36,597 bases of DNA from Protoeuglena noctilucae (GCA_958009085.1 OY253688.1:682001-718597); one strand, 5' to 3'. Positions 1 through 27,000 are shown, counted from the first letter of the stretch. Program-made: numbers and translations. Notes: generated from the letters alone by a model not told the origin.

Positions 1-184
1 CTGGCTGCTGAGCTGACTGCGTGGCTACGCGGTACACCCAAGCCCTCGCGCCTGCCCATCGACCCTGCACTCCGTCACCTGTCACCCCCCTCACCCCTCA
101 CCTATCACCCCCTCACCACCCCATCACCCCCTCACCACCCCCCGTCACCTTAACACCCCATCACCCCCCTCCCCCCCTCCCCAG

Positions 185-1333
185 CTGGGCGCCGCCGCCG
201 TCTGCCACGGCGCGACCGGCAAGGGCAACGACCAGGTCCGATTCGAACTGGGATACTACGCCCTGAAGCCCGACATCAAGGTCATTGCCCCCTGGCGCGA
301 GTGGGACCTCAACTCCCGCACCAAGCTGCTGGCTTACGCCGAGGCGAACGGCATCCCGGTGCCGGCGTCCAAGCGGTCTGAGGCGAGAGTGGGGGTGGTG
401 GAGTGGTGGAGTTCGGGTTAGTTATTGCGAACATTGGGAGCGGTCACAGAACGATCCGGGTTGGCATCCCTCACTCTAGCACCCATCCCTCCCTCACCTG
501 CCCTCTCTCACCTGTCACCCACCCCACCTCAAACGCTCTCACCCACCCACCTCCTCACCCACCCCTCACTCTCACCCACCCCCCCCCCCCCCCCCTCCCC
601 CAAACTCCCCCCAGCCCCCCTACTCCATGGACGCCAATCTCCTGCACATCAGCTACGAGGGCAATGCCCTCGAGGACCCATGGGTGGAGCCGCCCGAGGA
701 CATGTACCTGCGCACGGTGGCGCCAGAGGTGAGAGACATGGGGGAATGGCTTGTCCAGATATGGTTTTTGCGTATGTATTCTGAATATTTGTATTTTAGT
801 AATATTTTCTGTGTAAGTTTACACATGCTTCATAAATGGTTTTTTTTTGTTTTTAATCATGTTTTAGTTTGTATCTATACTAAATACTGGTAATTATCAA
901 AAGTTATTGTTTCTGTACCCCCGCAGAAGGCCCCCGACCAGCCCACGTATTTGGAGATTGAGTTCGAAAAGGGCGACGCCGTGGCCATCAACGGGGAGCG
1001 CATGTCGCCCGCAACGCTGCTGAGGACGCTGAACGAGGTGAGGGGAGGGGTGGGGTTTGTGTAGAGAGATATATCCCATACCGTCACATGCTCGACACTG
1101 CTGAAGGGGTGTCGGTTAGCGATGCGGTGCTGCGGTAATACTGTCCATTACCCCATCTCATTCCATTCCACCAACCCATCTGACATCTCATATTATCACA
1201 TTCCCCAATTGTCACAGGTCGCCGGCGCCAACGGCATCGGCCGCCGCGACATTGTGGAGTCGCGCTTTGTGGGGATGAAGTCGCGGGGGGTGTACGAGAC
1301 GCCGGGGGGGACGGTGCTGCTCGAGGCACACAG
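185..1333 (+). CDS. ASS1: Argininosuccinate synthase, internal exons only (5' part lies before the window, 3' part in or after the N gap)
   Basis: Exons 185-382, 615-728, 927-1037 and 1218-1333 join in frame to [40 protein letters not shown]...[23 protein letters not shown]...[13 protein letters not shown]...[34 protein letters not shown]. These are the hallmark ArgG/ASS motifs. Donors at 383 and 1334 are GC. Confidence 0.97.
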
Positions 1334-1455
1334 GCGAGTGCGATATTGTGTTATTGATAGTGTTACTGTTACTGTTATGGTTATTATCAGTGATGGCTGT
1401 GGTGTTGTGTGTATGAGACGCCGGGGGGACCGTGCTGCTCGAGGCGCACAGGTGA
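1291..1455 (+). repeat. Direct repeat: ASS exon end plus donor (1291-1337) copied in the intron (1410-1455)
   Basis: gtacgagacgccgggggggacggtgctgctcgaggcacacaggcga vs gtatgagacgccggggggaccgtgctgctcgaggcgcacaggtga. Confidence 0.92.
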
Positions 1456-1520
1456 AGAGGACGTTGTTCTTGTTCACAATATAGTGATAGATGTTTGACT
1501 GCATGTGCGTCTTCATCCAG

Positions 1521-1720
1521 NNNNNNNNNNNNNNNNNNNNNNNNNNNNNNNNNNNNNNNNNNNNNNNNNNNNNNNNNNNNNNNNNNNNNNNNNNNNNNNN
1601 NNNNNNNNNNNNNNNNNNNNNNNNNNNNNNNNNNNNNNNNNNNNNNNNNNNNNNNNNNNNNNNNNNNNNNNNNNNNNNNNNNNNNNNNNNNNNNNNNNNN
1701 NNNNNNNNNNNNNNNNNNNN
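1521..1720. other. Assembly gap (200 N)
   Basis: Run of N between the converging ASS and NRAMP genes; both 3' ends are missing. Confidence 1.
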
Positions 1721-4700
1721 TGGCTGTTGCTGTTGTGGGTTGTTGTTGTTGTTGCTGCTGTCAAAATGGTGTTGGCATTGTTGGTTTGGATTGCGCTGTT
1801 CTTCGAAAGGCGGGACTGCGGGGGGGATTGAGAGGGGGTGGTAGAGGGGGTAGTGATGTGTGGAAGTGGCAATGAGTGTTTCCAATCCCACATATTCCAA
1901 TTTAACAATCACCATGACTCACCAGCAGCTCCCCCAGCGAGCACCCCTCCTGGAACAGGTGTAACGTCGAAGGCGCATTGGCCCCCACACCCACACCCAC
2001 ACCCACACCCGCACCCATAACACCCGCGCTTGCCCCCATACCACCCACATTGGCACCCATACCACCCGCACCCGCCCTCATCCCACCCCCCGCATTCCCA
2101 GCCCCCACCCCGCCCCCCTCCCTCCCCCTTCCGCTCCCCCCCTCTCTGCCGATACTGAGCTTGCCGATGGCGAGGGCGGCGTGGGTATCGCTGGGGCTGC
2201 GCCTTAAACTGCGATTGGATCGGTCCTCGTGGTCGTCCATCATTGCAGACGCCAGAATGGATAAGTCACTGGGTGGGGTAAAAGGGGAAGGTGGGGTAAG
2301 GATAAAGGATGCAGATGGGCTGAAGATGGGGTGAGAATGAGGGCGATGGGAGAGGGGGAGCTGATGTGTCGCCATACACGCACCCCGCAGCATTGCTGAG
2401 TCGATGCATTAAAGAAACCGAGCCTAACATTATCAATGATGATAACCATAATAACAATAATAGCATTATAACAATATATCGACAATAATAATAACGATAA
2501 GTAAGAAAACAACAATCACAATAGTAACCCCACGCCCCTCCCTCACCGCACGCTCCTCCCCGACCGCACCCGCCCCTCCCCCCTCGTCGCCCCCACCGAC
2601 GCCGCCACCTGCCTCACCCCACCCCCACCCGCATTTGCAACACCCGCGTTTGCGGCGATTGCGCGCGCGTTCATTGCGATAGGGATGCCGCCCGCCACGT
2701 GACTGCCGAACGCGGGCTTGGGATGCGGGTGCATGTGTGATGGCATGTGCGGGTGGTGGGGTGCGAGGGGTGGGGCGGGGGTGGGGTCGAAAGCGGTGAG
2801 GTCTGGGGCACTGCGGGGGGGGAGAGTGTGTGAGAGAGATGATTAGGTGGGATGGGGAAGGAAGGGGACGTTGGTGACACGTGAAAGTAACAATTACGGT
2901 AACAACCGTAGGGCTGCAGGTGTGTCAGACCCACATACGCTGCCCACCCATGAACGGCATGCCGTTCATTCATTGTGTACAATATACACACCCCATCTCT
3001 TATCCCCTCTCACCTCATCTTCCAGTGCCCCTCCCAGCCCCCGCTGCTGCAGCTGTGCCGCGCCGCCGCCGCCCCCGCCCCCACCGCCCCCGCCCCCGCC
3101 TCCCGCGCGCGCATCAAAGCGCCGAATGTGATGCCGCCGGGGGGGATGGCGGGGACGGCACTGCTGTGGCTGTGATGGTTGTGGTTATCCAGCAAAGGGC
3201 GAGTGGGGGTGGCCTGCGGGGGTGGGGAGAGAGTGGGGTTAATGAGTTAGGGGTTGCGCATGTGTTTAATGTGTATCATCGCATTCCAATGCATCTCGCA
3301 AACCCCTATCACGCACACCTGCACCCCAGCATGCGCACAACCCATGCCCTCACCCCATCACTCTACCACACCCCCATCCATCACCCCCCCACACAACACT
3401 CACCCCCTCCGCCCCCCACCCCATCCCCTCCTCCCTCAATGCCCACGGCAGTGGCGCGTTCGCATCCCCCCCACGCACCGCCCCATCCCCCCCCCTACAC
3501 TCCCCCAGTATTTCATTCAAATCGTCATCGAATGACAGCGCCTTGCTGCCCAGATACCACAGCAGGTAGAGGTATGCGATGGCGCACGTGATGGCGAGGA
3601 GCCAGATGAGGGACGAAGCGAGGGGGCCGCCTGGATGGGAGGGGGAGAGGGGATTAGGGGGGTTAGGGTCTTTATAAAACTGAGGATTGGAAGGGGTGGG
3701 GTGAGGGGTGAGGGGATAAGGGGGTAAGGGGGGTAAGGGGTGATGTGGGTGTGGGAGGGGTCAGGTAATGGGGTGAAGTGATATGCTGGGTTGAGCAAAG
3801 AATGCAATCATGACTGAAGCACTCCCCACCACCCCTCCCTTCCCCCACACCCCCCCGCCACTCACCCCACCCCCACGCCGCCCTCGCCACCTCTCTAACT
3901 GCAGGTGTCGCCTCGATTACGAAGCACCCCAGGTTGACAGAGACGAATAGCAGAGACGCGATTGCGCAGGTGATGGATAGCCAGAAGCCAGATGACTGGG
4001 GGGAGGAGATGGGGATGGGGGTGGGGTGATGGGGATGGCGGGGGTGGGGTGAGGGGATGGTGGGGTGGTAAGGGAGGGGTGGGGGTGGGGGGGGGTGGAT
4101 GCGTGGGGCGACTGTGGCGTGTGAAAAGCAGCTTTGCTCTGCAATCTCCCATAGCAATCCCCACCTCACCACTGCCTGCAATTGTCACACCAACAAAACT
4201 AACAACCTCGTTACATCTCCCATTCCTCCCCTCACCATCGCCCCGGTAATGGCGGGGTTGGCGCAGGCGGCCAGCAGCGGCACGAGCGCGAATGGCAGCT
4301 GGACGGTCTGCAGCACATTCAGCGACTGGTTGAGCGTGTCCAGTGCGTGGGGTGACGATGCCTGGGAATATGAGAGAGAGGGAGTGAGTGAGTGAGTGTC
4401 GGTGTTTGGATGGTCTGCAGCACATTCCGTGACCCATTCCCACTCTAACAATCTAACATTTCACCCTTTTCACTTCCCACACCCCTCACCATCCCCACCA
4501 CCGCCAGCGCCGGCCCCAGCGCCACCGCCCGCGTCACCGCCACCCGTTGCATGGGCCGCATCCGCACCCCCAGCAGCCCCGTCATCACGTGCTGCCCCGC
4601 CAGCGTGCCAGTCATCGTGCTCGAGTTGCCGCTCGCCAGCAGGCCCAGGCCCCAGATGTACCTGGGAGATGAGGGAGAGAGGCGGTCGTTACATGAAGTG

Positions 4701-7022
4701 TTACTAGTATTACTATACGGTACCATGGCAAGAGAGGGGTGTTTGGAAAATGTGTACAATGTGTGTGTGGATCACCCACCCCCTCTTCCCTCACTTCATC
4801 GCTAACCCATCCATTACCACCGCATAACCCAACCACCCCCCCTATCCCCTCACCCCATCGCTACCCCACACACCCCCACCCCTGATCCCCCCCTCACCTC
4901 ATCGCCGGCCCATACGCCGCCACCAGCATCGCCCCCGCCGTCGTGAGCCCCGCCTGCCCCGCCCCCGGCTGCCCATAGAACCCTTTCGCAAACACCGCGA
5001 CCACCGCCACATTGATCGCCAGCGATAGCAGCAGAGCGATGGCTGAGTCGGTGCCCAGATACCACAGCGCGCGCCGCTTGTGGGGGGTAGTGACGGTGGC
5101 GTCGCGCGTGCGCGTGAGGACGAGCGCGGAGTGCAGGAATACGTTGTGGGGCATCAGCACGGATCCCACCAGCGCGGCGGCGATGGTGGCGGTGCCGCGG
5201 GGGAGGGAGGGGAGGAGGAGGCCCTGCGGGGGGGGGGGAGGGGGAGAGGGGATTTGTTTTAACGGTTTATTTAAAAACTGATTGGGAGGACCAATACGCC
5301 GTTCACACATGATCGTTACTGCAACAGCATCCATACCCATCCACTTCCCACTCACCTTCGCCACCTCGCTCGCCTCCACCCACCGCAGTCGACACATCAC
5401 ATCTCATGATATCAATAAAGCATCGACACCCCTCCCCTTCCCACTCACCTTGGCCACTTCCCCCGCCTCCACCCCCGCCCTGCCTGCCATGACCCAGAAG
5501 GAACCCGCCATGACCGCCACCAGTGCCGCAAACATGCCCTCGACCATGCTGGGGGGGGGAAAGAGAAGTGGGAGGTTGGTTTTAAACACATACATGCACT
5601 CAAAGATGGTAGTACGATACTAGAAGTGATAGCAATGCTGTGATGCGGGGGGGAGAGTGCAGGGAAGCGACGATCGTAACGTGCTCTCCGCAATGCTGGG
5701 GGAATCCCCATAAACACCCATCATGCACACTCGCCACCCTCATTGGAGGGTTAACCACCCTCACCGGAACCCGAACCCGTCCGCCGCGAGCATGAGGAAG
5801 GAGCCTAAGGCCCCCACCACAACCCCGGCCGGCAGCGGCACGGCTCCTTTTGACAGAAACGTCAGGGCTGCGGCACATCCCAGCACCTCCTGGATGTCGC
5901 TGCCCACCACGGCGAGCTCCATCATCACCCACAGGGCGAGTCTGGGAGAGGGGAGGGGTGGGTGGGGGTGATGGTTGCGTGGGTGAAGTGACGACATCGC
6001 ACGGTGGGGAGATGGGGTGTCCGTGTTACCCCGCACAGTACAGCACGCTTTCCACGTAATGTGCTCTGAGGCAGTCCAAGGACTGTGCCGGGATACACAC
6101 GCACACAGCTACAGCCGACGAACTCCCCCCCGCCTCCACCAGCTAGTCGCTCGCTAGCAACTTGCTCACCTGGGCACGCGTGGGTAGACCCCCCGACAGA
6201 CGGAGGCCAGGTCCCGCCCCGTCGCGACCCCCACCCTCGCTGCCTGCACTTGCAGCAGCAATCCCAGCGCAGTCGCCCACAGCACCACCCACAGCAGCGC
6301 CGTGCCGGAGGACGCGCCCGCCTGCAGGTCGCCCTCCAAGTTTCCGGGATCCAAAAACGCGATCGACATTAGCAGGCCGGGGCCTGAAAGCGAGGGAGGG
6401 CGCGGAAGCGGAGGTTTTCTCATTCGCGCAACCGAGCGCTTCTGGAAAGACGCGTGGGGCGACGCCGGTGGACGCGGCAGGAATCGCGGTTCGATGCATT
6501 GTGCGTATATGCATTCGCAGACCGCCTCGCCTGTGAATCGCCAGAGCTCGCGCCACGAAAAGGGCGCAATGTCGGCGTCCGGGGAGGGGAGGCCCAGGAG
6601 CAGGCCGTGGCGCCGGTAGGACCCCGATCCGTGCGCGATGGATCCCTCGGGAGGTAACAGACGGAACGGCTCCTCCCCATCCCTGTCCGCTCCATCCTGC
6701 GCGGAGGAAGGGACCCACGTTCCACTCCGCGTTGTAAATGCCGCGCGAAGCGCCACGAGCGCTCCCCGATAAGCCCACGCGGGCAGCGGACGACATACAA
6801 GGGTGTTTAGTAAGCAGCCAAGCGCCCCGCCCCGGCAGCGAGGCGACGCGAGCTCCCCCGGTCCGGCCCTGAACGACACACGAGCAGTCCCAACACAGAC
6901 GCCGAGAGGAGGGATGCGGGCGCGCATCGCACCGTCCCGTGACCGATGAGCGGCTCCGTCAGCGCGTCCCCGTCGCGGCCGGCCAGCCCCGGCGAGGGGC
7001 CCTCCCGGCCCGGCCCGAGCAT
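1721..7022 (-). CDS. NRAMP: NRAMP/SLC11 divalent metal transporter with a long low-complexity C-terminal extension (3' end runs into the gap)
   Basis: Exons 7022-6933, 6696-6531, 6383-6170, 5941-5765, 5548-5449, 5223-4898, 4661-4490, 4361-4236, 3995-3866, 3630-3404, 3213-3014, 2810-2547, 2268-1923 and 1815-gap are all phase-consistent. Motifs: [97 protein letters not shown]. The core (6696-3540) is secure; the start codon and tail exons are less so. Confidence 0.93.
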
Positions 7023-10356: not shown

Positions 10357-10940
10357 GGAAATGGGGGAGTGAGAGTGAGAGGGGATGGGGTGAGAGAGTG
10401 GGGTTGCTTAGTTGGGTGGAATGTGAGGGGTGGGTGGGTGTGGGAATTGTGTTGGTGTGTGCGGTGGGTGCGACTGGCTTATGAAATGTATGGAAACGTC
10501 GCGTGTGCGGGGTTGGCGTTGCCAGTGGCTATTCTAATGAGTCTATCCAAGTCGGTGCTGCTTGAACACGACGCATTCGTCAGTCTTTCCAATATCGTCA
10601 GATTATTGTCAAATTCGAATTCAATCACTGCGCGGCGCCGCAGTTGGCGCTCGCATAGTCCATGCCAGCATGCGGTGTCAGTGCCCGTGCGTGGCGCGAG
10701 GAAGAGCGATCGCAAGCAAGGCTTTACATATTACGACAAACGGTGTTGTTGTTGTGACTAGATTGTATGTATAGGAAAGGGTCGTCATGCTCCGTAAACC
10801 ATACGCTCCACCCTCGCACCCTCACACACCCCCACCCCACCCCCTCCCATCCCCTCACAGCTGCCCCGCCACCCCTTCACACACCCATCCACTTACACAC
10901 CCTCACCCCCCCCCACCCCCCACACACCCCGACATCCCCC

Positions 10941-13900
10941 TCACAGCTGCCCCGCCGCATCGTCATCCTCATCGTTGTCCCCCTCATCCTCCCAGAAGCT
11001 CACCGGCCCCGCAAACACGATCCCCTGCGCCACCACGCAAGCGCCCACCAGCCCGCCACCCATGGACACGCTCGCACCCGCGCTCGCCTTGCGGCCCTCG
11101 GGGTCGCGAGACGCACGCACGTCCATGCGAGACCCGTCCGCCGTGATCAACACCCCGCGCAACTCCATTCCCTCATCCGACTTGTTCCCATTCCCATTGC
11201 CACCCTCGCTGCCACCCCCGCACCCCTCCCCCCCGCACCCGCCGCCCTCGCCCCACCCGTCGCAAGAGGGGGGGTCGGCATCGGCACGCGCACTCGCATT
11301 TGCGTCAGGCGCCCACCCGCACGCGCCACTGTTCTGTGCGGCCCAGAGAGCGCGCGCGCGGCCGTGGGTGGGGGGCCAGCGGGGCTTGGGGAGGAGGGCG
11401 GGGGTGGCGGTGGGGGGTGGGGCGGAGGTGGTGGAGGTGGTTGGTGAGGGTGACGAGGTGGGTGCGCCTCTCATGCGCGCTCGCTCCTCAATGCGGTGCC
11501 TGGGGGGGGGGTGGGGGGAGAAGAGGGGAGTGGGTAATGGAATGGCACTGCATGCGACCAACAACACTCCACCTCGCTCTCGCCGTCACTGCCCACCTAC
11601 CCCATGCACTCCCTCTCTACCCACATCCACACTTCACTCCCCCATGCACTCCCTCCCACTCACCTCAATGCCTCTCCCCCATGCACTCCCTCCCACTCAC
11701 CTCAATGCCTCGTTCTCGCTCCCCCTCCTCAGCAGCTCCTGCAGGCTGACGCCACCACCCCCCCGCCTGCGTGATGCGCCCAGGGGCAGCAGAGAGGCGG
11801 TGGATGTGGATGCGGAGAAGGGGGGGACTGGGGGGGAGAGGAGAGAGGGAGTGAGTGGGAGTGGGAGTGGGATTGGCAGTGAGTGTGACTGCGATGGATG
11901 GCATGCCAAGCCAGCTCAAGTGCAAGCCACTTGCGAATGTGCGCGACTGCCGCATATGCATGCACCACACACACACGCTCCCCCCCCCCCTCACCTTCCT
12001 CTTCCCGACCCCTCGCGTCCCCCCCCCTCCCTCCCCCCCCACTCCCCCTCCCCCCACGTCGGCACCCCCCTCGGCTCCCCCCTCACGCGGATCATGCCGC
12101 CCTCGTAGTGAAGCACGTAGATGTCGCGGTCGCCCAGCAACACCTGAGAGTTGTGGGAAGTAAGACGTTAATTAGTATCATTGGGGTTACTAGTCACCCA
12201 GCAACACCTGGGGGGGCGAATAACGAAAGGTTCAAGCATCCGTCATTGTCACCCAACAACACCTGGGGAGAGTGGAATGGCAGGAGTAATTCAGTTCATT
12301 GAACATCAGATAATGGCATGGTTTGCGCGGGCGATATATCACAGATGTACCACCCACCCTCCCCACCCCTCACCTCATCCCCCTCCCCCTCCCCCTCCTC
12401 GCTCCCCCCCTCCTCGTCACTCCCCCCCTCCCCCTCATCCTCAGCCACTGCCTCTGTCGCTGCCTCCCCCTCATCGTCTGAGTCAGGCGCCTCCACCCCC
12501 GCAATGCCCAGCAGCTCCAAATTCAAACCCATGGCTGCGGAGGTGGGGGTGGGGGGTTAGAAATGTGTTGTTGGCATCTATGTTGCACACAGATGGGATA
12601 GGATAGGCAACACATGCACCTGGGCAAGCATGCACACGCACACTGACTGACGCACGCACACACACACCCACACCCACACACACACACACTCACCCACACA
12701 CACACACACCCAACTTATACACAAATACAAACACTAGCACCCATACACCCACAGACTCACCCGACAGCGTCGACTGCGCCGTGTAGTCCGACAAATCAAA
12801 CACCTCCACCCCTCCCCCGGGCGCCGCCGCCGTGAGACCCCTGGGAGCCTCGGCCCCACTCCACGCCCCATTATCATACCCGTGACTGTTGCTGTGAAGA
12901 TTCGAATGCTGACCACCCCAATGCCCCCTCTCCCCCCTCTCTCCCTCCAGCACGGTGTACCGATCTTTCGCCAGCTCCACCGCTCGTTCCAGATCAGTGG
13001 CGAGCACGGTGGCGAGCGGGGGCACGAGCACCGATCCGGGCCTCTCCACGTGCAAGTGGGCGTTGAGGTCGGATGCGGCGAGCACGGCCGAGGATGCGTC
13101 GACGCGCATGACGGATGCCGACAGGGGGAGGTACGGCTGCACGTTGTCGAGGAAGCGGTCAGCATCCGATTGGTCCTGGGTGATGAGAGAAGGGGGTGAG
13201 TGGGTGAGTGGGTGATTGAGTGGGTGAATGTGTGAGTGAGGGTGAAAGGTGCAGTGGGGGAGGTGTGGTGGGGTTGAGAGGGGAGTGTGTGTGTGGAGTG
13301 GTCAGGTGAAGAGGCGTCATCGATCGTGCATCTATCCATCACAGTCACCATCACCCCCTATAACTCGCCTGGAACACGGGCACGATGTCCCTGACCAAGT
13401 CGCACCCCTCCTCGACCGCCTTGAAGCAGTACAGGCCCATCATGCCCTCATGCTCGAATGCGAGAGCGAACACGCTGGGGGAAGGGGGAGAGGGGAGCGG
13501 GGAGTGAGCCTCTTACTCACTCCACGCCTCTTAACAACGTTACAGTCACACTCACACCCATACAGTCACCACCACAGTCACCCACCCCACCCCCATCCCA
13601 CCCCCACGTCACACCCCGTCCCACTCGCACTCACCTCCTCGGCATCCACCCCTTCACGGCCCCCCACAGCGTCCACCCATCCACGTCCCCCTCCGCCGTC
13701 GCCTGCAGGTACCGCAGCGACAGCAGCGACTCCTCCATGCCGCCCGCGCCGAGCAAGTCCGCGGGGTGGGGGAGGGCGTCGAAACACGAGGGGGGAGGGG
13801 GGCCGTCCATGCCGGGGACACCGCCCGCCCCGTCCAGGCCCTGGGGGAAAGGATAAGGATAAGGGGAGGCGTTTGAATGAGTATAAATGTGCGTATATGA

Positions 13901-14990: not shown

Positions 14991-16220
14991 CCGCGCCCCC
15001 CGGGCCGCTGGCCCTCCGCGCGGTCAGGGGTCGCGCGAAGGGTCCACGCCCCGCGGCGCGCCGCCCCGTCCATCGCGCGAGGCCCGTGACAAGCGGGCGC
15101 GAGTTCCCACACGCATCCATTGGCCCAAGCTAGAGATGTGCGTGCCGAGACGGGCCCCGATCACAGTCGTGCGGGGCGCTAGGGCGCAGCAAGGGCACCC
15201 GCAGGAGAAGCGCGGCCCCCGGCCGATCCCCGGGGCCGATCGAGGACTGCGCGGAAAGAACGTTACCCACAGACGCTGTGGGTTCGAAATATCGCCGCCT
15301 GCGGGCCTCTGCGGCGCGGCAGGGTCGCAACGAATCTCTTCGTTCGTTAATGCGCAGGCGGGAGCTAAGCGATTGATTCGTGGGCTCGCCGGTCACTCAG
15401 GCAAACATTGACGCGTCGGGCAGTGCGCTCGGCCGGAAGGCTACGCCACGAGGGCACGCGACCGAGACCGACTGACCAAAAGGGCTATTACCCAGTTGGT
15501 GGGGGGACAGCAGAAGCCACGGGCGCGATGCTCGCGCAGTGCGGGCGCGGAATAAGATGTGGGCGGGGCTCTATCCTGCAGCGACGACTCGAGGCTAGGG
15601 GCCGACCCCGGCATGCGACGAGTTGGCGGCCGGAGTGTAGCTCCGCGGCGAGAGCCTTGAGGGTCGGACTCCTTGCAGCGAAATTTCAGCAGAGCAATCG
15701 TGTCGTTGGCGAAGGCGGGGCATCCCCAGGCGTTGTCCTCAGCGCGGGGACTCGTCTCCTCGCAGTGGCGCGCCTACGGTCCCTGCCTCAAGGGCGCCTG
15801 CCGACCGCGACGGGTGACAGGCGCGCGGCGGATAGTGTATACATTGCAATGCACCGCGTGTTAGCTGCGTCTCCGCTCGCTGCGCCTTGGGAGGTCCCGC
15901 ACGTCCTACATGCTCGCTGTGGCGGGCCTCGCGCGCGCGTGTTCGAGGTCCCTTGCTTGACTGGCGTCACTGCGCGCATCATGTGTGTCATAGCTATGCG
16001 TCTCTGTGCTTGTCACGCATCCCGACTCCCCACGCTCGCCTCCGTCGCTGTTGCAGACACAACGTCCAGCTTGAGTGGCCCGGGAGGGACCTTATTTCCT
16101 CTTTTGGCGTTGCCATTCCACGCATGTTATCATCCACATCCCTTGCTTGCGCTAACGTGTCCTCCGCCCCTCTCCGCAGGCTGAGCGGGTGGCCGGCCCT
16201 GTCGTTGGGCTCGGCGCGCC

Positions 16221-19200
16221 ATGACGCAGGCCGCGCCGGCCCCGAAGCTGCCGCCGCTGGCAGCGGGGATCCTCGAGTCCCTCGCGGCGCGTCAGCCAGC
16301 GGCGGTGGTGGTATCGACGGCGAGCTTCGACGTCCCCACGGGCCAGGTGGCTGGCCGCGACGCGAATTCACGTTGAAATTGCCTAATTTTGGTACGCGCA
16401 GTTTATTCATATCATAAACTCCGCGTTTCTGTCCCCGCAGCGCCTCGACTCCCACGCCCTGGCCTCCACGTCGGGGCCCCCAGATGCGACCCCGCGCCCC
16501 AACTCCCGCGGCAAGGCCCTGCCCCCTCTGCTGGCATCGGCAGCCACCCCGGTGAGTCGAACCAATCCGGTGGCACACGGGTCGTGCCTGTCACACAGCG
16601 GGGCGATGCCTAACCCTGTGTGGGCGTGTGCGCATCCATACACAGCCATCAGCGCCCATCCCTACACATATGAAACCCCTCATTTCGCCCATCGCAGATG
16701 ACGGGGACTGGTGCACCGGCACGGGGTCCCTCAGACACGGGCAATGCACCCAGGAGCGCCCACGACAGGCTGGGAACGCGTGAGTGGGCGACTGAACACG
16801 TTGTGATGCAGCTGGCGGAGGGGTTTGCGATTGATCCCCCTGCCCATGAACATGCAGTCTACCCATCTCTTTCTTACCTTCCCTCACTTGTTTAACCCTC
16901 TCTCCCCCCACCCCCTCGCTTCCTCACCCCACCTCTGTTGCCCACCCACCCCCATCCACAGTATCGGTGCGCACGGCTGGCAAGGCGGGCGTGTTATTAG
17001 AGGCAGTCACTGCCGATGCCTTCGCCACGGCTGCGGGGGCGGGGGAGTGGGACGACCACGGCCCGGACGGCATGCATGGGGTGCGGGGGGCACACGTGTC
17101 GGCAGCGGCACTGGAGGTGAGGGGGGCATTGGGGGGTGGAATGGGGAGTAAAGGGTAACACGTAGTCTCTGTACGCACATTCTCATCCCTCTTTTCTTAC
17201 AGCGCACATTGTCTCACGTCGTCTGTGCACCCTCGAATCACACTGACACAATGCCAGTACATCATCACTACTCCCCCTCCCACCTGCAGCGTGCGCTGTC
17301 CCAGGTCGTCTCTGAACCACGCATGCTAATACATCACTACCCACGCATGCCAACGCATCACTACTCCTCTCCCCTTTAATGCAGCGCGCCTTATCCCAGG
17401 TCGTCTCTGCCCTGGATCCCTTAGGCGATCCTGGCCCCTCCCCCCCCCTCGCCCCCCTGCACCGACTGGGGCTGTCCAGGGAAGCACTGGGGCAGGCGGG
17501 GGTGCCCGCGGACATTGCAGAACGGTGAGAGGGAGGGACAATGTTTGAATAAGTACTGTTTGGTTGTTTATAGTCTCTACGTGCCTTCACTGTTGACACC
17601 CCGCATGCGTTAATGCTTCACTCCGTAGCTACACTTCAACCTCATCCCACCCCTCTACTCCAGCTTTCACAATCACCATCCCTCTCTCACATTCACAAAA
17701 CTACTCCCCCCACTCCCCTCTCCTCAGCATCCACCGCCTCCTCTACGTCAGCACCGTCGGATTTGGCGCGTCGCTCTCCGCCGCCCTCCGCCCCTGCCGC
17801 CACCGCTCCAGCGACGTCATGCGGAGAATCGTCACGGGATACCTGGCCCTCGCGTGCGCGTCCCTGCGCCACACCTTTCACTCGGAAGTGCTGGCGCTGG
17901 CCGAGCTGACGTCCGCGCAGGCGGCCGAGCTGCACGACAGGCTGGAGAGACTGGCGCAGGTGGGAGTGACGGTGGGACCGATGGATGTGCCTCTCCCTCA
18001 TGTCTCTCACATCTCTCCCTCATCTCTATCACTCTTTTCACCTCTCCCCCATCCCCATCTCACTTCAGGCCTACACCGACCAGTCCACGCTCGAGCGCGC
18101 CCTGGCCAGCGTCGTCTCCGCCCACGCCGAGGAGGTGTCGCGGAACAGGGCACTGACGGGGCAACTAGAGAACGTGCAAGCAACTGTGGAAGATTTGGAT
18201 AAGAGATACGCCATGACCAGGCACCAATACATCGCGGAGGCGCAACACCGGGCGGACCTGCAAGCAGAGGTGGGGGCATGACGTGCGCGTGTGTGTCTGT
18301 GTCTGTGTCTGTGTCTGTGGAGATGTGAAATGCAGGGACTGCGAAGGAGGTGGATTGCCGGATCGGAGTGACTCTGTTACTCTGCGCTGCATGCCCGCTC
18401 ACGCACCCACACGCCCACCCCACCCTCTCACGCCCCCCCTCTCCCCTCTCCCCCACTGTTACCCCTCCCATTCCTCACACCCCCGTTATTCAAATCCCCC
18501 CCAGGTCGCCTCCCTCCGGCAGCGCGTGGCATCGGCCGAGGCGACCGCGCAAGAGTGCCGGGAGGGGGAGAGGCGCGCGGAGGAGTCGCTGTTGAAATTC
18601 AAATCGGAGACGGAAGCCGAGCTGGCCAGGGTGCCGGGGCTGGAGGAGGAACTGGCCAGGGAAAGGGGTGAGGGGGTTGGATGGGGTGCAGTGAGGGATG
18701 GGATGGGGGCTTTTGGGTTGTGAAGACGGGTGAGTGGGGGTGAGGGTGAGGGAGAGATGGGGTTGTGGTAGGAACAGAAATGGTTATGGAGAGGGGTGAG
18801 GGGTAAAATGGCATGGGGGGTCGCGTCCCTATCTATCCCGCTCATCCCCTAACCCTCACCCCCCCATCCCCCCTCCCATACATGTCCCCTGTTCCCCCAT
18901 CTCCCTTCCCCATCTCATCTACCCCCCCACCCTCCCCAATCCCCCATCTCCCAGGCCTGCGCGAGGCTGCCGAGGACCGCCTCTCCTCCCTCTCTTCTAC
19001 AAACGAGCGATCGGAGTGGCGGCAGAGAGTCACGCACGCGCGCTTCCAAGAAGAGATGGGGGCCAAGGGGGCCATGCAGGAAAGAGTACTTAAAGCAGAA
19101 AGGGGTTTAACTGAAGCTACCGGGGAGCTCGCGCGGCTGAGGGAGGAACACCGCAAGCTGGGGAGGGTGTATGAGGAGTTGTTGACGGAGGGGGCGGGGC

Positions 19201-20654
19201 TGCGTGCGTCGGTGTCTCGGCTGGAGTTCGAGAGGGAGCGGCTGGTGGGGGCGAACCGGGAGCTGGAGACGAAAGGGATCGAGATGCAGGCGAGGGGGGT
19301 TGGGTGGGGGAATGGGGGAGAGTGGGTGATGGGGTGGTGTAAGGGATGGAGAGGGTGGTGATGGGAGATGAGCGTCAGGGAGATGCATGCGAGGGGGTGG
19401 GGGTGATGGGGGATGGGTGGTGTGAGTGAGGAGAGTGGTGGTAAGAGACTAAGGGGATTGAGATGCAGGCGAGGGGGTGATGGATGGGGAATGTGCGGGT
19501 GATGGGGTGGTGTGAGGGCTGGGGGCGAGTGGGTGACGGTAGCTGCCTCCATGCGTGCGAATGGGGAAGCAACGTGCTCCCCCGCCACCCCTCTCCTGCC
19601 ACGTGTGCCACTCCCCTTCCCCCTCCCTCCCCATCCCTCACCTGCTCTCGTCTCCTCTTCACCACCCCAGGAGGCCCTGGAGCGCAAGCGAGAGAAGAAG
19701 CGCGCTTACAAGGCAGCCGCGTCTGAGCTGCGAGGGTCCCGCGACAGTGCGGTGGAGCAGATCGAGCATCTGAGGTCGCAGCTGCAGTCGGTGACCAAGG
19801 AGAGGCAGGCGGCGGGGAGGGAGTGCGAGAGGGCCATGGGGGAGGCGAGGGGGTTGAGGTGAGGGGGGCGGAGTTGGTGGCAGTGGTTGGGGGTGGAAGT
19901 GGGGGTGGGGGGGTGCGGGCGAGTGGGGAGATGACTGTGCTCACCCACACACATCCCGCATCATCCCTCATCCCACATCACCCATCTCACCCATGCCATG
20001 CATTCACTCGCAGGGACCACCTGTATATACCAATGCGTGGCCTCACCCGCACACCTATCGTATCTCTCATCCCAAGCATCTCCTATGCACTCGCAGGGAC
20101 CACCTCCGCTCCGTCACGCTGGGCTTCACGCACGCCGTCCGCGCCCTCCGCGCCAACCAGACGGCCAGGCGATACCTGCAGCGGAGAGTGGCGGAGCTGT
20201 CGGCGGGGTGGACGGCAGCCAATACGCGGCTGGTGGGGGTGGAGAGGAGACTGGAGGGGCAGGTGAGAAGGGGGGGTGGGATGTGGTTATGAGAGGTGGA
20301 TGGGTGGGTGTGAGGCATTCCCTCCCCGTTTCGCACCCCATCCAATTCACCCTCCTTTTCAAATCTACCACCCGCACCCCACCTCACCCCATCATTCCCC
20401 CCCCATCCATCCCAGGTCGCCGAGTGCGCGCGCCTCAGGGACACTTTATCCGAATTGGAAAAGGACCTGCAGGCCGCATCCCAGCGCGCATCGGACGCCG
20501 AAGACAACGCCCGGCGACTGGAGGCGGCGTTGGCAGAGGCGGAGGGGCGGCTGCGTCTGGGGAGGGACGACTTCGCGACGGCGCAGGAGAGGCTGGAGGA
20601 GGCCAAGAGGGGGAGCGAGGGTGAGTGTGGGGGTGGGGGAGTGTATATGTCTGT

Positions 20655-20692
<38 letters not shown>

Positions 20693-23498
20693 CTGCAGGA
20701 GGCCAAGAGGGGGAGCGAGGGGGAGCGTGTGGTTGTTGTGTGGTAGAGGGAGGGGGAGGGTGGGGCAGAAGACATGGCAGGCCGCGACTCACCTCCCCGC
20801 TCCCGCCATCCCCGTCACTCCTCACCACCCACCCCACCCATGCTATTACTCACCACATCAACACCCCCCCCAAAACCCCTTATCCCTGCAGCTCTCGAGG
20901 CCACCTTAGCCACCCTCCGCCGTCAATTAGAAGAGCGCGCGGCAGAGCTGCAGGCGGCGCGTGACAGGGCGGACGCGGCGGAGCGAGAGCTCAGCACCGT
21001 GCGTGGGACGGTGGCGACGATGAAGATCGAAAAGACGCAGATGCAGGGGCAGCTGCAGGCGGGGAGGCAGACGATACGGGTGAGTGGGAGGGGATATATA
21101 GTGTGAATTAAGTGATGATGGGTGCATGCGTGGGAGGCAGACAATACGGGTGAGGTTGAGGGGTGGGTGAGTGTCATGCACCATTTGCCAAGTGCACCCA
21201 TCACACTCACCGTCTCTCTGCCACATTCCACTGCTTTTGCACGACCTGTAGTCCTGAGATATGATATGCTCACATTCCTCTCTTATATTCAAATTCACTC
21301 GCAGGATCTTCAGTCCAAAGTGGCCGAGGAGCAGACGCGCGTGAAGGACGGGCTGGCGAGGGAGGCGGCACTCAAGGCGACGGTGGCAGATCTGGAGAGG
21401 CAGCTGAGGGGGGCCACGGGACGGGGAGACGGGCTGCAGGTGAGGGGGTTGGATGGTAGTGGGAGAGATAGGATGGGGTGGCATTGCAGGGGAGAGTAAG
21501 GTCAGCGACAGCTGTGCGCAATCCAACTCCCTCTCCCTCTCCCGTATTAGATTCCACAAATACTCATTCTTTCTCACTATCTTATTCCAATTTTTCAAAT
21601 CTTTACACCCCACTCCCTCTGCCCCTACGCAGACCCTCTTGGACGAGCAGCGTCGTCTTTTGGAGGAGGAGAAGCGCCTGCGAGCGGCAGACGTGGAGAG
21701 ACTCTTAGCGGTACAGGCGGCGGTATCTGATGAGTTGGAAAAGACGAGAGAGGATCTAAAGCGGGAGGTGGAGGGTCGCGGGGAGGACGTGCAGTGGCGG
21801 GAGGAGGAGATGGCGCGGCTGCGGGCGGTGTTGGCAAAGCAAGCCGAGGAGATCGAGGAGAAGAAAAAGACGATCGAGGCCAGGGATAAGAGGATACAGG
21901 CGAGGAGATGGCTGTACTGCGCGGTTGCATGGTTGGCTGGTTGTCCGCCGCGGTCGTTTTTGTGATGTGTTTGCACTGTTATATGGCTGCTTGTGGGGGA
22001 TTAGCCCCTAGGCACATCACTGCTGTGCTGCTACCCCCAACCACCTGGTTACGGCAGATGTGCGATGCGAACGGGTCGGTGTCGTTGTGTGTGTCGCAGG
22101 AGTTGCGTGACCGCATTGAGAAGCAGAACGGCGCCTTGGAGGATCTGCGGGAGAGGCTGGACGAAGAGAGGGAGAGGAACGAGAGATTAAATGAACAGAA
22201 GGTCTACTTCGAGTCACAGGTGGGTATTTGAATGGGGGGATGGCAGGTGGGGTGAGGGTTTACTTCGAGTCACAGGTGCGTATTTAAAAGGCATGCGAAA
22301 AGCCCAGACAGACTATGGGTGTGCTCCTTTCACAAGTCTGACCCACTCACTCACTCCCTCACTCACTCACTCCCCCACCCACTCTCAGGTCTCTTCGATC
22401 AAGGCGGCCAACGACCACTTGAACGACAGGCACGTGATGGACGAGGAGGAGATCCGCAGGCTGCAGGGGATGCTGGTGGAGGAGGGGAAGGTGCTGGCGT
22501 CATCGCAGGAGGAGCAGGTGAGTGTGTGACATGGGGCATGGGGCATGGCATGGCATGGGGAGGTGCTGCGTCATCGTATCCGGGAGATATCCGGGAGACA
22601 CCCGGGATCGCAGGAAGAACAGGCGAGTGCATGGCATGGGGCGCATGCGTGGTGTGATGAGATGGCATGCGGTGGCAAAGCAGAGATAGGCGCTCGTCTC
22701 CACCAACCCTCACTGCCACCCCCACTGCCACCCTTAACACCACCCCCACTCCCACCCCCACTGCCCCCCCCACTGCCACCCTCACCCTCCCCCTCCTCTC
22801 CCCCCCCAGGAGCACGCCGTTGCCAAGGCCCGCCAGCAGGCGGAGCTGGCCTCCCGCGCGCGCATGCTCAGCCAGGAGACGAAGTGGCTCAGCGCGATGC
22901 GACGCGCAGTGGAGGACCTGCGTGATCGCGAGAAGGGGTACGACGCACTGCAGCGACTGTTCAAGGCGGTGGAGCTGAGCGTGGAGGACATGGGGGGGCT
23001 GGCGAAGGGGGTCCGGGACAACGCGGAGCCTGAGGGGGAGGAGAGGGGGGAGGGGGGGGCGGTGCGGGCGCAGCGCAGGCGAGCAAGGGGGGGTTGGGTC
23101 AGTGCTGGTTTGAGTACTGAGTGAGTAGAGGTTGTAAGAGTTGTGGTTGGGATGGGATGGAGGAGTATGCACGTGCATGATGCGACTATCGCCGTAATCA
23201 CCGCCACCGCTTCCCCCATGCACCCTCACTCACTCACCAACCACCCATTCCTTTCTCCTCACATGTTAATCCTCCCCCCTCTCTCTAATTATCTCTCAGG
23301 CTCACGGACCGCGAGAAGGACCGGGAGCGCTTTGTGTCTCTGCTGCTCGAGCGCGTGGACGTGGTGCGTGCCGATTTGGAGAAGGCCAAGGAAGTGAGGA
23401 TGGAGTTCAATCGGCCCAAGTCCGCGAGGGGGTACCAGGCGATGCTCAAAGAGAGCCAGGAGCTGGTGGAGGAGTTGGGGGGGAGGGTGGAGAGGTGA
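16221..23498 (+). CDS. Large uncharacterised coiled-coil protein, ~1131 aa, 19 coding exons
   Basis: Exons 16221-16346, 16441-16551, 16698-16779, 16962-17116, 17400-17524, 17728-17959, 18069-18269, 18505-18667, 18955-19289, 19671-19858, 20097-20262, 20416-20620, 20892-21079, 21305-21439, 21633-21899, 22100-22219, 22389-22517, 22810-23078, 23300-23498 join without stops or phase clashes. It is E/R/A/L/Q heptad-rich from ~17900 onward. A non-coiled segment, LGLSREALGQAGVPADIAERIHRLLYVSTVGF, precedes the coil. A probable 5'UTR intron has its acceptor at 16179. Confidence 0.88.
20587..20730 (+). repeat. Direct repeat: exon end plus donor (20587-20629) copied 100 bp downstream in the intron
   Basis: gagaggctggaggaggccaagagggggagcgagggtgagtgtg vs gagaggctgcaggaggccaagagggggagcgagggggagcgtg. 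Confidence 0.92.
20657..20690. repeat. (GA)n microsatellite, intronic
   Basis: gagagagagagagagagagagagagagaga directly abutting a duplicated exon end. Confidence 0.9.
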
Positions 23499-24035
23499 CG
23501 GAGGGGGACGGGGCGTCGCGCGCGGCAGTAGCGATGGGCGTGTACGTAATGGGGGTGCTTGAAGTGTTACACGGAGCCGAGTGGAGGAAGTGTACCCTAA
23601 CCCTCGTGAGCGAGAGTGCGGGTGTCGCCATGCGCTCTGTGCCTCTGCGGCGAGGTGTGTTGTCATGGCATGACATGCGCACGGCAGGTCGGTCGAGTGA
23701 CCAGGGCTGCGGCAGGAAGGCGGACAGCGCAATTGCCCCATTCACAGACGTTGCCCCTCTTCAAACGCGTCGCCCCTCCAAACGGGGCGGCGAGCGCGGG
23801 GCTGGCCGTGAGACTGCGGCTGGCTACACAGGGAGCGGGCCCTAACAAGGCCCAGCCAGGTTAACATACAAGACAAGACAGGGGGCGTGCGGTGGGTCAA
23901 AGACGCACGCCCGACAGAGAGGCAGGCAGCCAGGCAGTCGCAGCCGTCCGGTCGAGAAGGGAGCGAGCGGCGCTGGCGTGCCCAGAGATTGATGCGCGTA
24001 CCACACGCATGCGTATGCGCATATTCAGAGGCGCG

Positions 24036-27000
24036 TCACAGGCCGACGCGGGCCATGGGGACCGCCCCCGCGCGCCCCCGCACCCCCCGCACCCCGGCCG
24101 CTGCCCTCCTCGTCCCACCCACAGCCGGCTCCCTGACCAGGGGCCGCGCTTGGGGCGTGGGGCGTGCGTGGGTGCGTGCGTAGGTGGCCTTGACCGCCCC
24201 CTGCCGCTGCGGCGCCTGTGCCTCCCCCTGCTTGCTGACTGCGAGGGGGGTGAGGATAGGGATGTGTGTCGGGACAGGTGCGAAGCAGGGCATGGGGATA
24301 CCGACAGCACTAACCAGGCAGAGCACGACATGCGCCATGCCATAAGTATGGGCCAGTGACGAGGCACCTCGCCCCACCACCCCATGCCCCCCCCATCCAA
24401 CATGTCTCACCCGACGCCCCGTTCCCCCCCTCGTGCCCCTGCATCTCGCCGTCCATGCTGGTGAAGAGGGAGCTGCTGGCGTGCACCTTGATGGCCCTCC
24501 CGCTGATTTCGTGCAGGTTGCGCCACTCGGGGTCCCACTCCACCGCCTCCGGGGTCGAGCACGCCACGGAGAGGCCCTTGGGCACCGTGTCTAAGGCATG
24601 CGAGGACGGGAACTGCTCCTCGAACAACTGCAAGGGGGGGTGGAGAGATGAGTGAGGTTGAGGTTGGGCAGGTGCGGTAGGAAGGAGGGAGAGGTGGGAG
24701 GGGTGAGAGAGGAGGGGGCGCGCGAGGGTGGCGACGCATTTAGCGAAGGGCCGTGCACATGACCATCACCACCCCTCTCTCGCCTGCTGCCTGAGGAGGT
24801 CGTACCACTCACATCAACATTCATCATCCCCCACCACCCCATCCCCTCTCTCGCCTGCCTCAGGAGGTAGTACAGTCACACGACCACCCCCCCTCCCCCC
24901 CCTCTCTCGCCTGCCTCAGGAGGTAGTACTCGCGCGACCGCGGCGTGTCCACCGGGAAGCGCTCGTGCCTCTTGTCCCACATCTCGTCCGTCACCACTGT
25001 GCGGGCGTAGGCCTTGAGGCCATCCACCCAGTCGTAGCCCACGCCGTCGCTGAACTGCTCCTTCTGGCGCCACAGAACCTGAGTTGCAATGGGGGACACA
25101 GGGGGGTTTACGATAAAAACGCCCCAGCGCAGAGACACACACGCCCGCTCGCCAGCCGCAGCAGCAGAGGCAATCGCACGTACACCCACACGCACACGAC
25201 ATATGACATCACTCTCGGCTTTCATGACTCCTTCCTACCACACCCATGCCCACCCAGCCACCCCGCCCCCAGTCGCACCCCAGCCCACCCCCCTCGCATC
25301 CCCCTCACCTCGTCCGGCAGGTAGGGGTCCTCGGGCCGGTCGAACGCCTTGCGCAGGATGTACTTCTCCATCTGCGGGTGCACCCCGTCCGGCTTCTTGG
25401 TCATGTCGCAGACCTTGTCGAGGGGAGAGACGTCCATGGCGTAGTTCATGAAGTCCCGGTCCAGGTACGGCACGCGGGGCTCCACGCCCCACGCGAAGGG
25501 GGCCTTGTTGGCGCGGAGAACGTCCCACTGCGGATCACGAAGCGTGGAGGTGGATATGGTCAGTCAGGGCAGTTACATAACAACGGCGTGCAACGGCAGC
25601 AGCTGCACATGCCTCGCCGCGCGCGATGGGACAACAAGATACGATATGCGCCATGTCACGCGCCATGTCACATGCCATGTTATGTTGCCACCAACCCCCC
25701 CTTCTTTCTCTCGCCTGGTGGAGCCTTGCCGTCTTCCTAACGCACTCCTTGTGGAACTCGTCCGGGCTGGGCGCCTTGTGGAAGTAGAGGTAACCCCCGA
25801 AGATCTCGTCGGCCCCCTCCCCCGACAGCACCATCTTGATGCCCATGGCCTTGATCTTGCGCGCGAGCAGGTACATGGGCACGGCCGCCCGCACCTGCTC
25901 GTAGCTCTCGATGTGCCAGATGAGGTCGCGGAGGGCGTCGAGGCCGTCCTCCACCGTGAAGTGGAACTCAAAGTGCTCGGTGCCCAGGAACTCGGCCACG
26001 CGGCGGGCGGCCACCAGGTCCGGGGCGCCCTTGAGCCCCACGGAAAAGGTCTTGAGCCGCGTCATCTGGTAGCTGTTGCGGCTCTCGCTGAGGTGCTTCA
26101 CCACGATGGCCGCCACGAGCGACGAGTCCAGGCCGCCGGACAGCAGCATGCCGTAGGGCACGTCCGTCATGAGGCGCTTCACCACCGCGTCCACCAGCAG
26201 GTCGTGGATCTTGGCCAGGTCCGCGCGGTGCTGGGGCACGTACGACGCGTCCACCAGCCACCGAGGGGTGAACCACTGGGTGAAGGACACCTGGCCGTCG
26301 CGGGTGGCGCGCATGTAGTGGCCGGGGGGGAAGATGTAGAACTCGCTGCACACCGCCTGCAGCGCCTTCATCTCCGACGCCACCCACACCGCACCCGTCT
26401 GCGGGACGGAGGGGCGGCGGCGGATGAACAGGGAAAGCGGCTCCGCGGGCGGCTTGTCAATCCCCCTTCGAGCTCCCCACCCACCTCGTCCTTGCCCCAG
26501 TACATCGGCGCCTTGCCCATCTCGTCCCGCGAGGCGTAAAAGTCCCCTGTCTTCTCGTCGTACATGGCGAGGGCGAACATGCCGTCCATGCGCTCACTGA
26601 CGGGCCTGCGGAACACGGACGCGGGGCCGGGGGTGGAGACGCGGCCGGAGGCGTCGCCGCGAGGGGCGCGGCGCGCGGGCTGGCCGAGGCGCCGTGCCAG
26701 TCCCGCGGCCGAGTCCGCGCCGCCCGCCAGGCAGCGGCGGCGCGAAGTAGAATGCAATCCCCATCTCCCAAGGCCCGGGAATCCCCAGGCGCCGCGGAGC
26801 GGGCGCGGGACGCCGGGCTCCCCACCCCTCTGGCCGCTCCCGCGCCCCGCGACGTCGATAGTCGCGCCGCAGTCGCAAAAACACGGCGCAGGGAAGCGAT
26901 TTCCTCACCCGAAATCGCGGTTGTTGTGAACAAAGAGCGGCCCGGTGACGGCACAATCGCTCGACGACGAGAGCGCTTGTCCCTTGAGCTCCTTCTCCCG

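Follow-up and report, generated by a model that had tools for sequence, protein, structure and literature searches.

Junction-spanning direct repeats inside the introns of a subtelomeric window of Protoeuglena noctilucae

The DNA analyzed here, referred to as the window, is a stretch of 36,597 nucleotides (nt) from Protoeuglena noctilucae (GCA_958009085.1, OY253688.1:682001-718597) with a G+C content of about 65%. Its introns contain direct copies, termed echoes, of short segments at their own exon edges, and nearly all of the copied segments span the splice junction. The window holds a partial argininosuccinate synthase (ASS) gene on the plus strand, an NRAMP transporter gene on the minus strand, a class I histone deacetylase (HDAC) gene (plus), a gene without a name at 10945-15073 (minus), a gene for a long coiled-coil protein at 16221-23498 (plus) and an asparagine synthetase (ASNS) gene (minus), the identity of which was confirmed by a protein-atlas look-up. 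A roadblock/LC7-like gene, a small gene and a lysyl-tRNA synthetase (LysRS) gene are all on the minus strand. A 200-N gap occupies 1521-1720. A (TTAGGG)n telomere array extends from approximately 36,300 to the end, with degenerate variants before it (36314-36420), and the window is thus the last 36 kb of a chromosome. All counts below refer to this one subtelomeric window, and the density of echoes may be a subtelomeric feature.

Gene models were assembled from three sources: 14 introns seen in RNA contigs, single-exon Pfam matches, and an exon-chaining gene finder trained on those introns. Of the resulting 75 introns (median length 193 nt), 61 rest on the gene-finder models alone, and the gene finder placed micro-exons into two echo regions. 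The RNA contigs come from runs X9 and X10 and drop rare isoforms; 15 of the 48 RNA joints are listed, and positions 1-4999 lie outside the RNA-contig evidence. GC donors, mostly GCGAG, are assigned to 18 of the 75 introns. Two of these are among the 14 RNA-confirmed introns (21900-22099 and 24628-24910), and 16 are predicted. Neither Pelagomonas, with 0.45 introns per gene (PMC9481584), nor Emiliania, in which GC donors reach about 60% (PMC4028052), resembles this pattern closely. A joint skipping 8,276 nt (11416 to 19693) was found in a DNA run only, with a shorter side of 22 nt, and was treated as a repeat-driven contig chimera. The window is present near-verbatim in marine metagenomes and metatranscriptomes, including the metagenome DNA run X5, which belongs to a different study than the organism's own runs.

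Detection of the boundary copies

Echoes occur in about 13 of the 75 introns, which agrees with the density of approximately one in six given in a preliminary description of this DNA. All 16 coordinate pairs from that description align, with cores that are 83-100% identical. Examples are 37/37 at 11674/11637, 31/31 at 24899/24843, and 44/49 at 20587/20687. The weakest of the listed copies are the third copies at 19378-19398 and 24774-24805 and the copy at 22561-22641, which has a 34-nt internal insertion.

The window was scanned for direct repeats 15-300 nt apart using a composition-corrected log-likelihood ratio (LLR) and a filter against short-period repeats. Twenty matches with an LLR of at least 18 were obtained, compared with 0 in 12 block-shuffles, where the top value was 17.2. 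In a control scan with a spacing of at least 35 nt, 19 matches appear in the 36,290 nt of the window versus 4 in 298,891 nt from 36 unrelated metagenome loci. These loci were retrieved with the large ASNS exon and have at most 76% protein identity over most of that exon; they are too distant for a comparison of orthologous introns and were therefore used solely as the outside control for the repeat scan. No relative was obtained from the metagenomes when a coiled-coil exon served as the query. Most of the echo loci escaped Tandem Repeats Finder, since each unit is conserved only in part.

The association of each exon edge with its own intron was also scored using 40 exonic nt per junction, which keeps the splice consensus out of the score. 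The intron belonging to the junction outscores all 74 others at 12 of 149 junctions, compared with a chance expectation of about 2, and the margin over the best other intron is at least 3 at 9 junctions.

An assembly or polishing artefact, or chance similarity, is hardly credible as the source of these repeats. In favor of an artefact, the 200-N gap adjoins the ASS locus, and the perfect 37-nt repeat of 11674/11637 interrupts the Logan contigs. Against this, both copies are present with zero differences in single X5 contigs at five loci (5326/5419, 17285/17380, 19266/19365, 21062/21132, and 22198/22254). Since these contigs are independent, mis-assembly does not account for the copies. The preliminary description had argued against mis-assembly from the divergence of the copies, and the metagenome contigs bear that argument out; the shuffles, with no comparable match, speak against chance.

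Donor, acceptor and exon-internal loci

Nine donor loci are robust, with junctions at 1334, 5448, 11700, 19290, 20621, 21080, 22220, 22518, and 24910. Among all echo loci, four junctions are confirmed by RNA joints and two are informed by Pfam matches; the others are predicted, with a continuous reading frame as support. In the sequences quoted below a slash marks the junction. The echo of the ASS gene (1290-1455, plus strand) has its junction copy at 1290-1337 and its inner copy at 1409-1455, with a spacing of 119 nt and an identity of 43/48. The exon ends at 1333 with a GC donor (CAG/GCGAGT), and the inner site reads CAG/GTGAAG. The exon at 1218-1334 corresponds to positions 74-112 of PF20979 and the previous exon to positions 37-73; the two abut, which fits a donor at 1334. 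The intron after this echo (1338-1950) is unusually AT-rich, with 44% GC in the bin 1001-2000, and contains TGTTAC and GCTGTT microsatellites and the 200-N gap.

The donor echo of the NRAMP gene (5326-5474, minus strand) consists of a junction copy at 5419-5474, made of 26 nt of exon and 30 nt of intron around the donor at 5448, and an inner copy at 5326-5381. The spacing is 93 nt, the identity is 48/56, and the donor 10-mer of the inner copy is identical to that of the junction. Both copies lie within one X5 contig (5240-9018). The exon at 5449-5548 has no Pfam match; its neighbors correspond to positions 59-109 and 148-253 of the domain, with a gap of the right size between them.

In the gene at 10945-15073, the echo at 11597-11711 (minus strand) is a perfect 37-nt tandem of 11674-11710, containing 10 nt of exon and 27 nt of intron, and 11637-11673. 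An older third unit with a decayed donor follows at 11597-11636. The intron at 11500-11700 (minus) is supported by RNA joints in X9 and X10.

In the coiled-coil gene, one donor echo is a three-unit tandem array at 19266-19540 (plus strand) with units of 99, 80, and approximately 96 nt. Each unit opens with exon-edge-like sequence and a GC donor, which reads CAG/GCGAGGGGG at 19290 and 19469 and CAT/GCGAGGGGG at 19389. The first two copies are contained in one X5 contig (18433-19415). At 20587-20735 (plus), the junction copy 20587-20635 (34 nt of exon and 15 nt of intron) recurs at 20687-20735 with a spacing of 100 nt and an identity of 44/49; the inner GT is now GG, and the intervening sequence includes a (GA)18 microsatellite. 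The echo at 21062-21163 (plus) has a junction copy at 21062-21093 (18 nt of exon and 14 nt of intron) and an inner copy at 21132-21163, with a spacing of 70 nt, an identity of 28/32, and an intact inner GTGAG. The intron at 21080-21304 (plus) is confirmed by RNA joints in two runs.

The echo at 22198-22291 (plus) has a junction copy at 22198-22235 (22 nt of exon and 16 nt of intron) and an inner copy at 22254-22291, with a spacing of 56 nt and an identity of 33/38. The sequence beyond the inner copy shows no relation to the 18-nt spacer (p 0.89). Both this pair and the pair 21062/21132 are contained in the X5 contig 20700-22334. At 22489-22642 (plus), the junction copy 22489-22537 is matched by an inner copy at 22561-22642 that is split by the 34-nt insertion; the core has an identity of 30/36 and a spacing of 105 nt, and the inner donor is GC instead of GT. 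The intron at 22518-22809 (plus) is confirmed by RNA joints in two runs. A 12-nt C-rich minisatellite (CCACCCCCACTG-like) occupies 22703-22810 at the 3' end of this intron. The metagenome depth rises to 132x in the bin 22342-23008, and contigs join the minisatellite to 10827 and 11198-11200, which indicates related C-rich repeats at many places.

The echo of the ASNS gene (24772-24929, minus strand) has three copies. The junction copy at 24899-24929 (19 nt of exon and 12 nt of intron, with a GC donor) is 31/31 identical to the inner copy at 24843-24873, and a further copy lies at 24772-24805; the spacings are 56 and 71 nt. The GC-AG intron at 24628-24910 (minus) is confirmed by RNA joints in two runs.

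Two candidates outside the earlier list were obtained from the scan. At 10851-10956 (minus strand), the segment 10937-10956 (GGCGGGGCAGCT/GTGAGGGG on the minus strand) is identical to 10851-10870 (20/20, spacing 86 nt, LLR 18.9). The site in 10937-10956 may be a donor, or it may be the stop codon and start of the 3' untranslated region of the gene. An X9 RNA contig of 681 nt matches 10956-11498 from its letter 137 on, and the break coincides with the edge of the repeat 10937-10956; the break at 10956 may reflect splicing or an allele with one repeat unit fewer. The second candidate, at 18649-18803 (plus), is weak: 18649-18675 matches 18777-18803 at 22/27 with an LLR of 11.3, which is under the chance threshold.

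Acceptor echoes are found at three predicted acceptors (12143, 17385, and 20097), and the inner copies keep CAG in all three cases. The echo at 12129-12268 (minus strand) has three copies of CAG with 15 nt of the exon start. The real copy is at 12129-12149 (TCTCAG/GTGTTGCTGGGCGAC on the minus strand) and the inner copies are at 12193-12213 and 12248-12268, with spacings of 64 and 55 nt and unrelated spacers that are richer in AT. The acceptor echo of the coiled-coil gene at 17198-17409 (plus) consists of three tandem units. The real copy, 17380-17409 (TGCAG and 25 nt of exon), is preceded at spacings of 95 and 87 nt by inner copies at 17285-17314 and 17198-17227, and the inner units are alike over their whole length; all copies are within one X5 contig (14265-18278). 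At 20002-20105 (plus), the real copy 20085-20105 (CACTCGCAG/GGACCACCT) recurs at 20002-20022 with an identity of 20/21 (18/18 in the core), a spacing of 83 nt, and an LLR of 22.4.

The sole case that does not span a junction is the exon-internal echo of the NRAMP gene at 4300-4433 (minus strand). Its 27-nt source, 4300-4326, lies 35 nt inside the exon 4236-4361 and is copied to 4407-4433 in the preceding intron (24/27, LLR 24.9).

Placement of the copies and their possible origin

The copies are 18-56 nt in length and lie 37-180 nt apart, with two or three copies per locus and three copies at five loci. Each copy includes 9-44 nt of exon and 4-30 nt of intron, and the identity ranges from 73% to 100%. 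Head-to-tail similarity over whole units is seen at 11597-11711, 17198-17409, 19266-19540, and 5326-5474. At the remaining loci the repeat is limited to a core of 18-49 nt; at some of them, such as 22220, 24910, and 21080, the similarity stops sharply and the spacer does not resemble the sequence beyond the inner copy. The window scan gave no complex inverted copies; all 14 inverted matches listed are G-run/C-run low complexity. At four RNA-confirmed echo loci the outer, exon-attached site is the one spliced in two runs. For the other 8-10 echo loci, the 15 joints listed out of 48 include none, and no inner site is used by any of the 15.

Echoes are confined to one class of intron. CpG-poor introns have below 0.07 CpG per nt, versus 0.075-0.20 for CpG-rich introns, which have 50-82% GC and a median length of 146 nt. 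With the exon-internal case and the two extra candidates included, echoes are found in 15 of 42 CpG-poor introns and in 0 of 33 CpG-rich introns (Fisher P 5.9e-5), as the preliminary description had remarked for the latter. Within the CpG-poor class, the echo introns are longer than the others (median 253 versus 203 nt, P 0.007). CpG-rich introns are found in the first 1-1.5 kb of the long genes and along the whole of the LysRS, LC7-like, and small genes, and CpG-poor introns lie further downstream. The two classes resemble a gradient of gene-body CpG depletion, possibly caused by methylation.

The 5' half of CpG-poor introns is G-rich and the 3' half is C-rich, so that neighboring tracts are complementary over 20-40 nt as low-complexity inverted repeats. 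Examples are 3693-3733 with 3833-3873 and 11635-11703 with 11838-11875, and such tracts could pair in the pre-mRNA. Short tandem motifs resembling donors (GGGTGAGT, GGGGTAAG, and GTGAGG) are present in 5' intron parts at 13194-13240, 3705-3740, and 18734-18756; pseudo-donors are thus reiterated at a small scale too.

Wholly intronic repeats spaced by 35 nt or more are limited to two loci. One is a three-unit array at 4779-4924 (spacings 59 and 44 nt) in the NRAMP intron 4662-4897, and the other is the G-rich pair 3642/3705, which spans 3642-3724. Smaller intronic tandems occur in coiled-coil introns at 17317-17364 (24 x 2) and 17991-18032 (22 x 2). The preliminary description held that junction-spanning repeats no commoner than interior ones would point to ordinary tandem duplication; the loci counted are 12-14 at junctions and 2 in intron interiors. 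The expected ratio was simulated with uniform events in 40 CpG-poor introns and their flanking exons, retention of the mRNA-preserving products, intronic decay of 0-20%, and the same detector. The simulation yields 0.63 interior events per junction event for plain tandem duplication and 1.7-1.9 for insertion with a long duplication. The observed counts correspond to P 0.047-0.022 for the tandem model and P 2e-4 to 3e-5 for insertion. The ratio of exon part to period is at most 0.39 at all 14 loci (Kolmogorov-Smirnov P 2e-5; 9e-5 for the 12 robust loci). Donor cases outnumber acceptor cases by 11 to 3 when the extra candidates are included (binomial P 0.057) and by 9 to 3 among those listed earlier. 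A donor excess is expected if the upstream duplicate site wins, since this is harmless for donors and harmful for acceptors. At 9 of 11 donor loci the similarity ends inside the first run of at least four G after the donor or at most 2 nt past it.

The core of the interpretation is well supported: the echoes are direct duplications that straddle junctions, are hidden by use of the exon-attached site, and lengthen introns. The preliminary description had proposed local duplications hidden by splicing, and this stands, with the additions that the copies are direct, that the outer site is used at four RNA loci, and that the introns are longer. Its alternative of junction-targeted copying is retained to the extent that 12-14 loci against 2 indicate some bias toward junctions or edges; this bias toward intron edges is indicated, not proven. 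The fuller reading, to which we assign a probability of about 0.5, is that the echoes are the inner copies of short direct duplications that were placed non-randomly at the homopolymer tracts of intron edges. A short direct duplication would arise at the contact of an exon with either edge of a CpG-poor intron, the 5' edge being rich in G-runs and the 3' edge in C-runs, with the homopolymer tracts presumably serving as slip or break points for replication or repair. The product would in some cases be a true tandem duplication and in others a staggered break that was filled in and includes filler. Selection would discard every product that alters the mRNA, and the spliceosome would stay with the exon-attached site, which is the first donor or the last acceptor. 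With that site kept in use, the inner copy and the spacer would turn intronic, and the intron would gain one period per event. The duplication mechanism, the role of the G- and C-runs, and the neutrality of the inner copies are what we infer from this arrangement.

The junction excess would also result, although we consider this somewhat unlikely, from local tandem duplications that are uniform in position and filtered by selection for an unchanged mRNA. The excess would then be an effect of detection: exon-derived sequence is complex and has one copy frozen by selection, while G- or C-rich intron duplicates soon become unalignable. Several loci are indeed tandem over the whole unit, the spacer is weakly similar to the sequence after the inner copy in 8 of 12 comparisons (by a lenient mononucleotide-shuffle null), and the short-period G- and C-rich tandem repeats abundant in these introns were removed by the complexity filter; the modest P values of the interior deficit point the same way. 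However, a uniform start predicts ratios of exon part to period of up to 1, far above the values observed. Interior events are moreover detected in 63-75% of simulated trials, yet two were seen, and the spacers are non-identical at loci with 100%-identical copies. Selection may instead have kept the inner copies for a role in splicing, as U1-binding pseudo-donors, exon-edge enhancers, or elements of regulated unproductive splicing. The inner donor 10-mer is the same as that of the real site at 6 of 11 donor loci, and at 9 of 11 a GT or GC donor survives in the inner copy with a score higher than the 10th percentile of annotated donors. At several loci, conservation is higher in the copied core than in the remainder of the unit, and the 5' intron halves are full of donor-like GGGTGAGT and GGGGTAAG repeats. 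Such a role is nevertheless improbable: two inner donors have clearly been lost (by a change of GT to GG at 20721 and in the third copy at 11623), the spread of identities is as in neutral decay, splicing at the first inner donor would shift the frame at 8 of 11 loci, where the added length is not divisible by 3, and the RNA joints listed include no inner site.

Polymerase-theta templated insertions copy nearby sequence in direct and inverted orientation from anywhere near a break. The echoes do not fit this pattern: there are 0 complex inverted copies, and the sources comprise 1 exon-internal case versus 12-14 junctions. It is very improbable that the echoes represent target-site duplications of introners or remnants of intron birth through tandem duplication of an exon segment with AGGT. 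The setting would suit introners, as this marine alga has many introns of approximately 200 nt that are lower in GC than the exons, a feature also described for introners (PMC9860276). An all-versus-all BLAST of the 75 introns gave no shared family, however; its 13 non-self rows, with both directions counted, are all low-complexity, and the best of them (41 nt, 80%, E 7e-5) lies in a low-complexity 5' end. Matches between exon end and intron end, and between intron start and next exon start, equal the shuffled expectation at all 12 positions per side. The spacer and filler segments, when compared with the window by BLAST, gave low-complexity matches only and no other copy. The echo copies, at 18-56 nt, are situated inside the intron and not at its far end; they lie 37-180 nt from the junction in introns of 169-381 nt, and the intron does not equal one period. 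Intron birth by AGGT duplication was rejected because the acceptors confirmed by RNA (21304, 22809, 24628, and 11500) are situated past the inner copies.

Several observations weigh against placement at intron-edge homopolymer tracts. The interior deficit relative to the plain tandem model has a P of only 0.02-0.05 in a single window, and the simulation may understate the loss of alignability in slippage-prone G-rich and C-rich intron sequence, in which case interior duplications would go undetected. Ungapped alignments break at unequal run lengths, and this may be why the similarity ends at G-runs. A G-run within 25 nt of the donor is present in 34 of 42 CpG-poor introns (Fisher P 0.66) and, being nearly universal, does not predict which of these introns bear echoes. 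Four loci have 100%-identical copies, and at three of them (24843/24899, the 18/18 core of 20005-20022/20088-20105, and 10851/10937) the spacer differs from the sequence after the inner copy. These loci are thus not recent plain tandem duplications, and no single mechanism suits all loci. The large share of introns taken from gene-finder models also counts here, and some inner sites may be in use, as 15 of the 48 RNA joints are listed.

A broader and more doubtful extension is that a duplication process tied to G- and C-runs copies the neighboring splice junction again and again in this alga. It would then be a major force behind intron growth across the genome and behind the G-rich 5' and C-rich 3' architecture, and it would leave thousands of intact pseudo-splice sites. 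It might proceed through stalling linked to G-quadruplexes or R-loops, or through staggered breaks. If the density seen here holds genome-wide, intron growth is in progress in steps of 37-180 nt through duplication of the introns' own boundaries, and the genome offers hundreds to thousands of natural pairs of an authentic site and a near-identical pseudo-site, together with a direct test of biased mutational input at exon-intron boundaries. If re-copying tied to the edges is true, the genome is a natural experiment on the choice of the spliceosome among identical sites. For gene prediction in GC-rich algae the echoes call for caution, as a program may take a duplicated site for the real one.

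Comparison with known systems

Internal gene duplication is reportedly the subject of work by Gao and Lynch in 2009. In the window it is an existing intron that is changed. The tandem-duplication, AGGT-duplication, and break-repair models of intron gain have been reviewed (PMC3443670). As in the first two, a small intragenic duplication adds splice sites and the mRNA can stay unchanged; unlike them, the algal duplication lengthens an existing intron and makes no new one (PMC3443670). In intron gain of the Daphnia type, direct repeats arise from filled-in staggered breaks during double-strand-break repair, and some of the algal loci likewise have the order copy, unrelated filler, copy (PMC3443670). 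The algal repeats differ in having 18-56 nt rather than a few nt and in lying within an existing intron, and break repair is a proposal here (PMC3443670).

Introners form sequence families and carry target-site duplications of 3-9 bp that flank the whole intron (PMC9860276). The shared features are a marine alga, introns of approximately 200 nt, and short duplications beside splice sites, whereas the introns of the window have neither a sequence family nor such whole-intron target-site duplications (PMC9860276). In human FGG, a 403-bp duplication of the exon 8-intron 8 boundary leads to aberrant transcripts and disease (PMC9052919). A junction and its donor are duplicated in both systems, but the algal duplications are small and are fixed or common in the population sampled by the metagenomes, and the normal site is found in RNA at four loci (PMC9052919).

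The closest anatomy is found in human minisatellites whose first monomer lies across an exon-intron boundary, which are described for F7 IVS7, CBS IVS13, LAMIN B2, PDGF intron 4, and the interferon-inducible gene 6-16 (PMC1557585). F7 IVS7 carries a 37-bp variable-number tandem repeat (VNTR) with 5-9 copies and 4 bp of exon, and the most upstream donor is chosen by 5'-to-3' scanning (PMC1557585). In both the human and the algal cases the direct units start in the exon and reiterate the authentic donor as intronic pseudo-sites; the most upstream site is normally used in the F7 type, and the exon-attached site is found in RNA at four loci in the alga (PMC1557585). Echoes are therefore of a kind already known, which qualifies the remark in the preliminary description that no description at this density was known to its author; the density and the low-copy, partly non-tandem form were not encountered in the literature searched. 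A literature search, with supplements outside its scope, returned no report of such a density or of an algal case.

The differences from the F7 type are several. Every algal locus has 2-3 copies rather than 5-25, and the exon part is 9-44 nt rather than the 4 bp of F7 (PMC1557585). About half of the algal loci repeat the junction core only, with an unrelated spacer, and acceptor cases occur (PMC1557585). The human examples are isolated genes, while the alga has approximately 13 of 75 introns affected in one 36-kb window (PMC1557585). The novel aspects of the algal echoes are thus the density, the low copy number, the partly non-tandem form, and the acceptor-side cases. The human F7 arrangement has been studied with 50 constructs, and evolution has repeated it here on both the donor and the acceptor sides.

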